Shown: positions 23,285-25,248 of the stretch, one piece after another
Position numbering within the stretch: the first letter of the stretch is position 1
Layout of the letters: each line of letters opens with the position of its first letter
Source: Actinomycetota bacterium
GTDB lineage: Bacteria; Actinomycetota; CALGFH01
Direction: 5' to 3'
Assembly: GCA_035550755.1 (NCBI GenBank)
Contig: DASZON010000036.1
Span: forward strand, 1-35,093
DNA length: 35,093 nt
Translations under genes and position numbers: made by a program
Notes under the pieces: model-generated
What the model was told of the DNA's origin: nothing
The model's database searches: none
The model's input: the letters and a program-made list of their open reading frames with translations, nothing else

Positions 23285-23956
23285 TCAGATGACCAGCCGT
23301 GCGCTGGACACGTCGTCGATGTCGTAGCCGAGCCGGTTCACGACCCGGACCACGCCGTCGACGGCCGCGACGGCACGCACCACCGTGGGGACGAGGCTGC
23401 GTCGTTCACAGCGGCCCTGCAGGGTCACCACACCGTCCCGGACATCGACGTCGAACCGGTCAGGCGCCATGACCAGGTCGCTGAAGATGACGTTTTCGAC
23501 GATCTCCCGGCGCAGCTCCTCATCGGGCGGCAGGAACGACGTGAGCAGGTCCGCCCGACTGACGATGCCGACCAGCCGGCCGACCACGTCCACCACCGGC
23601 AGCCGCTTGACCCCGGCACGGTGCATGCGCCGGGCCGCCTCGGTCACGGTGGCCAGCGGTTCGACCGTGATCGCCGGCCGGGTCATCAGCTCGGCCGCCA
23701 CCGTGGGTTCCGCCCTGGCCCGATCCCGCCGCCGAAGCCGCGCCGACAGCAGCCGGCCCGGCCCGTCGCCCGGCTGCTCCGGCTTGGGCAGCAGGTCGGC
23801 CTCGGAGACGACCCCGAGGACGCGCCCTCGGCCGTCGACCACCGGCAGGGCGCTCACCCGCCGGCTGGCCAGCAGCTTGACCAGCTCCTTGTAGGAGCTG
23901 TCCTCGTGGGCGCAGGCCACGTCCCTGGTCATCACGTCATGGACCCGGTGGTGCAC
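23285..23956 (-). CDS. CBS-pair + BON domain protein
   Basis: The start is trimmed to GTG 23956, 6 nt after AAAGGAG. The sequence VHDVMTRDVACA...VSALPVVD...GVVSEADLL, then ELMTRPAITV...VKRLPVVD...GIVSRADLL, then BON (VRDGVVTLQGRCERRSLVPTVVRAVAAVDGVVRVVNRL) shows the architecture. Confidence 0.85.
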   Translation of the reverse strand: MHHRVHDVMTRDVACAHEDSSYKELVKLLASRRVSALPVVDGRGRVLGVVSEADLLPKPEQPGDGPGRLLSARLRRRDRARAEPTVAAELMTRPAITVEPLATVTEAARRMHRAGVKRLPVVDVVGRLVGIVSRADLLTSFLPPDEELRREIVENVIFSDLVMAPDRFDVDVRDGVVTLQGRCERRSLVPTVVRAVAAVDGVVRVVNRLGYDIDDVSSARLVI

Positions 23957-24129
23957 TACACTCTCCTTTCGCCCCCGGTGGTCACCGGAACGCGCCGGCG
24001 GGCCGACCGATGCAGCCGGTCCGGCAGCCCCAGCCCGGTGGTCCGGCGGTGATCCATGCGCAGGTGCGAGAGCAACTCGCTCGGCGTCGGGAAGCGCAGC
24101 TGGCACTTGGGGCACTGCACGATGGTCAT
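23956..24129 (-). CDS. small (57 aa) C2H2 zinc-finger protein
   Basis: An AGGAGG SD lies 8 nt before ATG 24129. MTIVQCPKCQLRFPTPSELLSHLRMDH fits C-X2-C-X3-F-X5-L-X2-H-X4-H exactly. The C-terminal tail is Arg-rich. Its stop TAG overlaps the GTG of the next gene (TAGTG). Confidence 0.6.
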   Translation of the reverse strand: MTIVQCPKCQLRFPTPSELLSHLRMDHRRTTGLGLPDRLHRSARRRVPVTTGGERRV

Positions 24130-24195
24130 GATGCTCACCTCCTGGAGGGCGCAGGTCCCCGTCTTCACTGTGACGAATGGATCGCTGCACCGACA

Positions 24196-24209
24196 GGGCC
24201 GACAGGCCC
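24196..24209. promoter_or_regulatory. single box GGGCCGACAGGCCC
   Basis: The arms are perfectly palindromic. The box ends 80 nt upstream of ATG 24129 (zinc-finger/CBS-BON unit). It shares the extended string AGGGCCGA with the boxes at 14580, 9863(-) and 34842(-). A weaker GGACCGTCCGACCC lies at 24230-24243. Confidence 0.4.
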
Positions 24210-24279
24210 GCAGTCGGTAGGCATATGGCGGACCGTCCGACCCGGCACCTGCCGATGCGGGGGCTGCCGCCCGAGCTGG

Positions 24280-24597
24280 CTACCCGGCTGTCGAGCGTTG
24301 GTACCTGAACGCCCAGGGCTCGGCGCCCCGGCCTGCCTCCACCCATCCATCGCCCTCGATCTCGCGACGGAGATCCCCAAGGCTCTTGGTCATCCCGGGC
24401 GCCCACGCCTCTTGCGGAGGCAGCGTGCCCAGCGTTCTCGGCGCGGGGAACGTGGCGCCCTCGTACCGGCGGTGGCCGTCGACGCGGCCGACGAATCGCA
24501 GGTACGCGTCGCCCGACTGCGACGCCAGGGTGGCGAGCGCGCCCGCCCACCACGACGCTCCGGCAAGGTCTTCCAATTCGATCTGGAGAGTCGCCAT
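24280..24597 (-). CDS. hypothetical protein (105 aa), no family recognised
   Basis: A GAGGAGG SD lies 5 nt before ATG 24597. The composition is balanced and non-repetitive (MATLQIELEDLAGASWWAGALATLASQSGDAYLRFVGRVDGHRRYEG...), unlike the Arg/Pro-rich shadow ORFs nearby. Confidence 0.5.
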   Translation of the reverse strand: MATLQIELEDLAGASWWAGALATLASQSGDAYLRFVGRVDGHRRYEGATFPAPRTLGTLPPQEAWAPGMTKSLGDLRREIEGDGWVEAGRGAEPWAFRYQRSTAG

Positions 24598-25248
24598 CAC
24601 CGCCTCCTCAGGAACGGCTCGGTCGGTGTGCTCCCGCTCGAGGCTGAGCTCGTACCACCTGCGATCGGATGCCTTCCCTTCGCTGGTTGTGCGTCCGATG
24701 CTCCACCACCGTCGCCGGGAGCAGTAGGGCTGTTGGACCCGGTCTTCCAGGGTCGTGAGCCGAGGGTCCTACCGGAGCGGGCCGTCGTCCTCTGGGACCG
24801 TGGCAGTCCAGGTCGCAGCGTCGGGCTGGGAGGCGGGTGCATTGCACCTTGCGCGTGGCCCAGAAGGGCACGACATGAACCGGCGCCAACAACGACGGAT
24901 CGGGCTGATCCTGTTCGGAATCCTGGCGGCGGGCGCGCTGGTCGGAGGCGGCTCGTGGCTGGGCCAGCGCAGCGACCGGCAACCGCCGGCCTCCGGACCG
25001 GGAGGCTCGGTGGTACGCCGCACCCATCGAAGGGCCGTCCGGTGCACTGGTCGTCACGGCTCTGGCCTGGGCCGTCGCCTGGCCGTGGTTGTCGCACCGC
25101 CAACGGCACATGCAAGCCGCTGGCCGGTCGTTGCCCGGTCAGAAGACACCACGCCTCCAGGTACGGCGACGCTGGACCTTCCGGCCGCGCCTGCTGGGAG
25201 GAGTGGGCGTCCACCAGGTGCCGGCCAGGTCGATGACCAGGTGCACCC

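Follow-up and report, generated by a model that had tools for sequence, protein, structure and literature searches.

In the window, a 35,093-nucleotide (nt) stretch from an uncultured soil actinobacterium (positions 1 to 35,093 of contig DASZON010000036.1, assembly GCA_035550755.1), we detected a 57-codon gene for a free-standing mini-protein that carries a single classical C2H2 (Cys2His2) zinc finger and lies directly ahead of a gene for a protein with a CBS pair and a BON domain (CBS-BON). Comparison of related loci indicates that the finger gene and one CBS-BON orthogroup form a conserved two-gene unit. The classical C2H2 domain itself is already known; what is undescribed, as far as we found, is a family of single classical fingers that stand free and have so far been seen in Actinomycetota only, and among them a basic subfamily with an RRxxGLxLPDRL tail that is encoded ahead of a Cys-bearing CBS-BON protein and behind an OsdR/DevR-type box. 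Literature searches returned no publication on this finger family, no NCBIfam family was found for the finger protein or for two members of the wider family described below, and there is no dedicated Pfam model. We tentatively favor the reading, held at somewhat less than even confidence, that the finger protein may be a zinc-dependent partner of its CBS-BON protein.

The finger open reading frame (ORF) is a genuine protein-coding gene. Its 57-residue translation (24129..23956, minus strand) is MTIVQCPKCQLRFPTPSELLSHLRMDHRRTTGLGLPDRLHRSARRRVPVTTGGERRV. The original prediction, made from the letters of the window, had described an ORF with an AGGAGG Shine-Dalgarno sequence and a TAGTG stop/start overlap with the CBS-BON gene, and all of these are present in the sequence: the overlap lies at 23958-23954, with the G of TAG shared with GTG, and a GGAGGTG block ahead of the ATG is unchanged across six aligned upstream regions. 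GC content at the first, second and third codon positions (GC1, GC2 and GC3) is 0.66, 0.55 and 0.91, and because the antisense frame is likewise GC3-rich, composition alone is no proof of coding. Conservation in relatives was judged decisive: we recovered 16 related clusters of 56-57 amino acids (aa) at 73-100% identity and 10 more distant ones (all 53-71 aa), the identical protein is present on 47 public contigs, and the ORF is conserved down to 51% identity, which answers the concern raised at the outset that it might lack counterparts in relatives. Against close relatives, the ratio of nonsynonymous to synonymous polymorphism (pN/pS) is 0.49-0.62 overall and 0.26-0.52 for codons 1-38. When the assembly (4 Mb, 71% complete) was searched in six frames, the finger ORF was the single match to the Pfam zf-C2H2 model PF00096 (26.6 bits) and is therefore not a chance pattern; a second finger gene did not turn up in this incomplete assembly. 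The terminal codons (GERRV) contain the AAGGAG Shine-Dalgarno sequence of the following gene, so part of the conservation of GERRV may be at the nucleotide level.

The original prediction read the protein as a classical C2H2 finger and proposed a profile search against the zf-C2H2 families. That search gave 26.3 bits to PF00096, above the gathering cut-off of 25.2 (E 9e-6), and the ligands are spaced C6-x2-C9-x3-F13-x5-L19-x2-H22-x4-H27 with the classical Phe and Leu core. Since the Cys-to-His spacer is 12 residues, the finger is of the classical type and lacks the defining features of Ros/MucR. Across 22 sequences, down to 51% identity, Q5, C6, P7, K8, C9, L11, F13, R24, D26, H27 and R29 are invariant, while at least 90% of the sequences keep M1, E18, H22, L23, R28, G32, L33, P36, D37, R38 and L39; the first His ligand, H22, is retained in 21/22, so all four putative zinc ligands are conserved or nearly so, contrary to the possibility, raised earlier, that the Cys and His residues would vary among homologs. 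An AlphaFold2 (AF2) model built on a 16-sequence alignment of the subfamily places a helix at residues 16-31 behind two strands, at 4-5 and 12-13, the predicted local distance difference test score (pLDDT) being 80-89 over residues 1-30; residues 1-31 are thus predicted to form one classical beta-beta-alpha finger. Every top Foldseek match in the PDB is a classical C2H2 finger that superposes on 24-26 residues of the model at 0.8-1.5 A, with E-values that are not significant because the domain is so small. Profile matches in the PDB include CTCF (E 1.7e-6) and ZNF524 (E 4e-6), as well as ZFY and a consensus finger.

Behind the finger lies a basic tail, as had been predicted: the protein has a net charge of +8 (subfamily range +7 to +12), and alignments show a conserved segment, RRTTGLGLPDRL, followed by a variable Arg-rich stretch. 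The subfamily-specific motif RRxxGLxLPDRL (residues 28-39) is kept in at least 90% of relatives. Beyond the motif the tail conserves charge rather than sequence, while the motif keeps specific G, L, P and D residues. The tail is predicted to be disordered (AF2 pLDDT below 50 over residues 36-54) and has no PDB match, the subfamily profile matching PDB entries through the finger only. We considered RRTTGL as a Tat signal and rejected it, as no hydrophobic region follows it.

We sampled the pairing of the finger gene with CBS-BON from both sides. On the finger side, the next gene on the same strand encodes a CBS and/or BON protein in 7/8 informative contexts (the window; the P0005 loci L015-L018; the P0003, P0016 and P0149 contigs; L142; and L004, at a contig end); the P0002 contig ends within an uncharacterised ORF downstream of its finger gene. 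Genes upstream of the finger gene vary among the linked contexts, and the next gene may overlap it by 1 nt or start as far as about 270 nt away, so the pairing persists despite changed flanks and spacing. The TAGTG overlap with embedded Shine-Dalgarno sequence occurs in the window, L004, L142 and L150; the coupling noted originally is thus real in the window without being universal. On the CBS-BON side, sampled independently, an intact finger gene precedes 3/4 orthologues (71-85% identity) and a 5'-truncated remnant precedes the fourth (Table 1), which brings the upstream finger gene or remnant to 4/4 and bears out the suggestion that the gene pair is conserved beyond the window. In the remnant locus, L149, homology to intact genes begins only at codon 12-13 in the DNA alignment and the Cys knuckle is swapped for unrelated sequence, which identifies it as a remnant; its C-x2-C-x9-H-x4-H pattern was considered as a natural Ros-like spacing and rejected as a chance reading.

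The CBS-BON proteins linked to the finger gene share residues that set them apart. An alternative public gene call (P0152) begins the window's CBS-BON gene 8 codons later at an ATG; we kept the GTG start because the added HHRVHDVMT aligns with the conserved N-termini of paralogues and orthologues. The linked orthogroup carries Cys15-x-His17 (VACAHED) in CBS1 and Cys183 (GRCERRSL) in BON, whereas three aligned other CBS-BON paralogues of the window lack Cys15, His17 and Cys183 and read VVTV.. and GRVERRSL at these places. This Cys/His set could be a redox or metal site. The orthogroup (the window protein and P0153-P0186) is also His-rich at its N-terminus (VHHRVHD).

The two-gene unit lies behind a palindromic box. 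A perfect-arm box 80 nt upstream of the finger gene had been noted before; it is present, reads GGGCCTGTCGGCCC in the minus sense, and is conserved in five relatives, where the form GGGnC-N4-GnCCC stands at about -80 (L004, L015, L142, L150 and L151). The divergent L019 and L143 each have a one-mismatch version at the corresponding alignment position. The 16-mer CGGGCCTGTCGGCCCT agrees at 13/16 positions with the Streptomyces coelicolor OsdR consensus AGGGCCGATCGGCCCT as given in PMC5069765, where OsdR sites are typically placed at -80 to -100 from start codons. By raw count the box pattern is not enriched in the window (6 observed against 9.6 expected), so only its placement is informative: 6/6 exact copies fall in the non-coding 13% of the window on a frame-based map. 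About 25 nt downstream of the box, CACAGT, CAGAGT or CAGACT occurs in 5/6 aligned upstream regions, and this CA(C/G)A(G/C)T could be a -10 element; if CACAGT is the -10, the box centre lies near -42 from the transcription start. The proximal DevR site overlaps the -35 element (PMC3029386). A scan for sigma-70 and terminator consensus sequences around the two-gene unit found nothing. The window shares a second palindrome, further upstream, with L004, L015 and L142 in the form GGAC(G/A)GT(C/T)C. Around the unit lie Usp genes, a V/A-ATPase operon and additional CBS genes, joined in relatives by genes for a hemerythrin-P-type ATPase and a cupin, a neighborhood that fits an OsdR/DevR-type regulon.

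Table 1. Features of the finger/CBS-BON unit in the window, and CBS-BON orthologues elsewhere (identity to the window's CBS-BON protein).
Feature	Position	Strand	Remarks
Zinc-finger mini-protein gene, 57 codons	23956..24129	minus	ATG 24129, TAG 23958-23956; host an uncultured soil actinobacterium
Finger core, residues 5-27	24049..24117	minus	QCPKC-x3-F-x5-L-x2-H-x4-H; PF00096 match, AF2 model
Tail, residues 28-57	23959..24048	minus	conserved segment, then variable Arg-rich stretch; from alignments
Shine-Dalgarno AGGAGG	24138..24143	minus	8 nt 5' of ATG 24129
Possible -10 hexamer CACAGT	24167..24172	minus	CACAGT, CAGAGT or CAGACT in 5/6 aligned upstream regions
Palindromic box GGGCC-TGTC-GGCCC	24196..24209		-80..-67 from ATG; OsdR/DevR-type
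Second palindrome CGGAC-G-GTCCG	24229..24239		about 100-110 nt upstream of finger gene; differs from OsdR-type box
CBS-pair + BON gene, 223 aa from GTG 23956	23285..23956	minus	cognate gene; Pfam CBS 107 bits, BON 37.7 bits
Orthologue P0155			85%; 57-aa finger gene upstream, same 1-nt overlap
Orthologue P0161			73%; 53-aa finger gene about 230 nt upstream
Orthologue P0170			71%; 53-aa finger gene about 220 nt upstream
Orthologue P0184			71%; 5'-truncated finger remnant upstream, at L149 about 2660-2850
P0262			66%; no finger gene upstream; lacks Cys15, keeps Cys183

We suggest that the two-gene unit would be switched on together with the surrounding hypoxia/redox-stress island, and that the finger protein would then partner its CBS-BON protein in a zinc-dependent way. 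Docking on CBS-BON would be through the conserved GLxLPDRL segment, the Arg-rich tail may contact a polyanion, either membrane lipid bound by BON or nucleic acid, and loss of zinc or oxidation of the finger thiols would be a plausible way to tune the complex. Partnership is favored because particular residues (G, L, P and D) are preserved in the tail motif, a pattern typical of docking motifs, and because the motif co-occurs with CBS-BON linkage, the parent family having neither. Several observations weigh against it. The linked loci all belong to soil actinobacteria that are related to one another and so do not count as independent contexts, and linkage is equally expected for a dedicated regulator, so linkage alone cannot separate a partner from a regulator. 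CBS-BON may not be a strict requirement for the finger: an intact finger gene precedes, in the L015 lineage (at least 24 contigs, several samples), a CBS-BON gene with an in-frame internal deletion that fuses CBS1 directly to the last BON residues and leaves 94 aa (L015 6198-6482, also L016-L018); L019 and L020 have Usp genes on both sides of the finger gene and no CBS-BON gene beside it; and in P0024 (207 aa) the finger, MTTVQCPKCELRF...DHRRTRGLGIPDPL, reads in frame into an OsmC-like domain. The pN/pS ratio of this very short gene is only moderately low, and reaches 0.66-0.81 (codons 1-38) against the more distant L019. Finally, a clear DevR/OsdR orthologue was not found in the 71%-complete assembly, where the best NarL-type matches to DevR are 38-40% identical.

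A close main rival is that the finger protein is a small nucleic-acid-binding regulator, which would control its own operon or bind rRNA or the ribosome in dormancy, with CBS-BON as its target or a co-regulated neighbor; we regard this as possible, if less probable than partnership. The single fingers of GAGA factor and SUPERMAN, together with a basic region, bind nucleic acid, and the architecture here, one finger plus a basic region, resembles theirs. The subfamily is basic beside a wider family with a median charge of -4, its disordered Arg-rich tail preserves charge over sequence, its position as first gene beside a conserved neighbor suits an autoregulator, and it persists where CBS-BON is shortened or absent. 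Ribosome-bound archaeal C2H2 mini-proteins also exist (6skg_Bo and 9qf4_Bk), the matches to them being weak (E 0.3-0.4; Foldseek rank 41). However, the helix base-contact positions -1, +2, +3 and +6, in our own mapping, are T, S, E and S, with a conserved Glu and none basic; the parent family is acidic; conservation of G, L, P and D in the tail motif looks more like docking; the tail matches nothing in the PDB; and apart from the OsdR-type box, no repeated sequence was identified as a possible operator.

Three further explanations were considered. A free zinc- or redox-responsive mini-protein, acting as a zinc buffer or thiol-switch peptide and merely co-regulated with the stress island, seems unlikely to us: the wider family is indeed free-standing in unrelated neighborhoods, the subfamily adjoins varied stress genes (CBS-BON, Usp, OsmC-like), and zinc-thiolate sites such as that of RsrA are known redox switches (as cited in PMC5069765), but one zinc per 57 residues is a poor store, and neither the RRxxGLxLPDRL motif nor the linkage to one CBS-BON orthogroup would be explained. 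It is very improbable that the ORF is an upstream reading frame coupled to CBS-BON translation with a functionless peptide. The TAGTG overlap and embedded Shine-Dalgarno sequence in four loci would suit such a role; the fold-defining residues are nevertheless conserved down to 51% identity, homologues are free-standing elsewhere, and a gap of 20-270 nt to CBS-BON in several relatives means that translational coupling is not conserved. Recent import of a eukaryotic finger or contamination of the assembly is the least credible of all, even though animal fingers (those of CTCF, ZNF524 and ZFY) are the closest matches in sequence and in structure, as the gene has a GC3 of 0.91 like its neighbors, the exact protein recurs on those 47 contigs, the family spans several Actinomycetota classes and phage and plasmid relatives are lacking.

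The window protein is part of a wider family, which we defined by an N-terminal M-x2-4-Q-C-P-x-C-x-L-R-F-x4-E-x3-H-x4-H in a protein of 35-130 aa. The window protein fits this motif, and profile searches recover it along with the family. Among 1.8 billion representative proteins, profile searching found 130 matches; some are eukaryotic multi-finger proteins, and many are small high-GC proteins with a single finger at the extreme N-terminus. Genomes searched with a degenerate DNA pattern for Q-C-P-x-C-x-L-x-F-x4-E-x3-H-x4-H yielded at least 120 matching contigs; the 80 matches listed are all from Actinomycetota assemblies except one labelled "bacterium" (among them Acidimicrobiia, Jatrophihabitans, Pseudonocardiales, Mycobacteriales, Frankiales and Nitriliruptoria), and the pattern-matched loci encode proteins of 35-93 aa. 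This taxonomic survey had been called for by the original prediction, whose remark that classical C2H2 fingers are rare in bacteria needs qualifying: within Actinomycetota the family occurs in 34/301 sampled genomes (about 11%), including 20/21 genomes of one taxonomic family and 5/13 of the window's own, with no match in several large families.

Pfam recognises these proteins through generic C2H2 models only, 36/46 wider-family members matching PF00096 at E<0.01. Most wider-family proteins are acidic (66/77 negative, median net charge -4); the window subfamily is a basic offshoot of this family. Among the neighbors of 69 wider-family genes there was no recurrent partner, and the wider family has neither the tail motif nor CBS-BON neighbors. 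A genome search with the subfamily alignment gave 97 pattern matches, of which 0 were confirmed, a metagenome search returned L019 and L020 only, and meaningful relatives of the finger protein were absent from phage and plasmid searches.

The finger resembles classical eukaryotic C2H2 domains of the Krueppel/TFIIIA type (CTCF, ZNF524) in its C-x2-C-x12-H-x4-H spacing, Phe and Leu core and predicted beta-beta-alpha fold. It differs from them in that a single finger begins at residue 4 of a 57-aa protein, lacking both a TGEKP linker and further fingers in tandem, and in Q5, P7, L11 and E18, which are specific to the actinobacterial family. In reviews, Ros/MucR stands for the bacterial zinc finger, whereas the beta-beta-alpha C2H2 finger is taken to be essentially eukaryotic (PMC9779718). 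Like Ros/MucR of alpha-proteobacteria, the window protein has a single bacterial Cys2His2 site flanked by basic residues. Ros, however, has a 9-residue Cys-His spacer, a third His (H-x3-H-H) and a 58-residue beta-beta-beta-alpha-alpha globular domain (PMC9779718), whereas the window protein has a 12-residue spacer, no third His and about 30 residues predicted to be ordered; a Pfam scan of the window's proteins found no Ros/MucR family member at E up to 1.

Small zinc-finger proteins of other lineages offer further parallels. C2H2 proteins of archaea and archaeal viruses (2lvh ORF59a, 2wbt B-129, 6skg_Bo and 9qf4_Bk) are likewise stand-alone, about 50-130 aa and built on classical fingers, and some are rRNA-bound, 6skg_Bo and 9qf4_Bk being bound to ribosomes; matches to this set are weak (E 0.035-0.4) and cover the finger only, and these proteins belong to other lineages and share no tail or context with the window protein. 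The zinc-finger micro-proteins of Haloferax volcanii, as described in PMC11241148, are also under 70 aa, zinc-binding, encoded by separate genes and mostly of unknown function, but they are Cys4 zinc-ribbon-like C(P)XCG proteins rather than Cys2His2 beta-beta-alpha fingers. The gene context, by comparison, recalls the regulons of OsdR (S. coelicolor) and DevR-DosR (Mycobacterium tuberculosis), with a GGGCC-N4-GGCCC box about 80 nt upstream and Usp, CBS, hemerythrin-P-type ATPase and V/A-ATPase neighbors. The S. coelicolor OsdR regulon holds a small zinc-finger protein, SCO6164, of the DksA/TraR C4 type, and a search of that paper for "zinc" and related terms only found no C2H2 protein (PMC5069765).

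Classical-spacing single fingers seen so far only in Actinomycetota bear on the origin of the C2H2 fold, and some family members, at 35-60 aa, are about as small as naturally occurring C2H2 proteins get, which makes them a resource for studies of metal binding and folding. The window branch adds an unannotated small protein to an OsdR/DevR-like hypoxia/dormancy gene set. To our knowledge, no function has been established for CBS-BON proteins, and a conserved partner gene is a concrete handle on them. A broader picture, which we consider speculative and doubtful as a whole, is that this is the first described bacterial family of free-standing classical C2H2 mini-proteins, old in Actinomycetota, whose basic branch would serve either an energy sensor of the dormancy regulon, the Cys-bearing CBS-BON protein, as its zinc/thiol-switch subunit or as a dormancy-induced ribosome- or RNA-binding factor like the ribosome-bound archaeal C2H2 proteins.

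Several further observations concern the surroundings of the subfamily. Directly upstream of the finger gene in the window, a 106-aa ORF (24280-24600, minus strand) matched nothing in Pfam or NCBIfam; L004 and L142 share its 3' end at the DNA level, and the OsdR-type box lies between it and the finger gene. In the L015 lineage, the gene after the shortened CBS-BON is a hemerythrin-P-type ATPase, called as two pieces. The second domain of P0024 looks OsmC/Ohr-like by eye, and the protein is either a natural fusion or the product of a lost stop codon.

Other variants were detected in the wider family. P0050, P0098, P0106, P0122, P0125, P0132 and P0133 combine an N-terminal finger with a linker rich in Pro and a C-terminal part of one or two hydrophobic helices, and would be membrane-anchored single fingers. 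A subtype beginning MADVSQCPFCELRFQAKWEL... occurs in L027, L051 and L096 (Acidimicrobiales), where the next gene starts 4-5 nt past the stop and looks by eye like a YbaK/EbsC-type tRNA-editing gene. Within the window's own genus, L007 (G010) and L010 (G003) are without the window subfamily and carry a different 111-114-aa finger protein, MPVKCPSCNLMFGTRNELDWHIREEH..., whose gene in L010 adjoins that of a multi-pass membrane protein.

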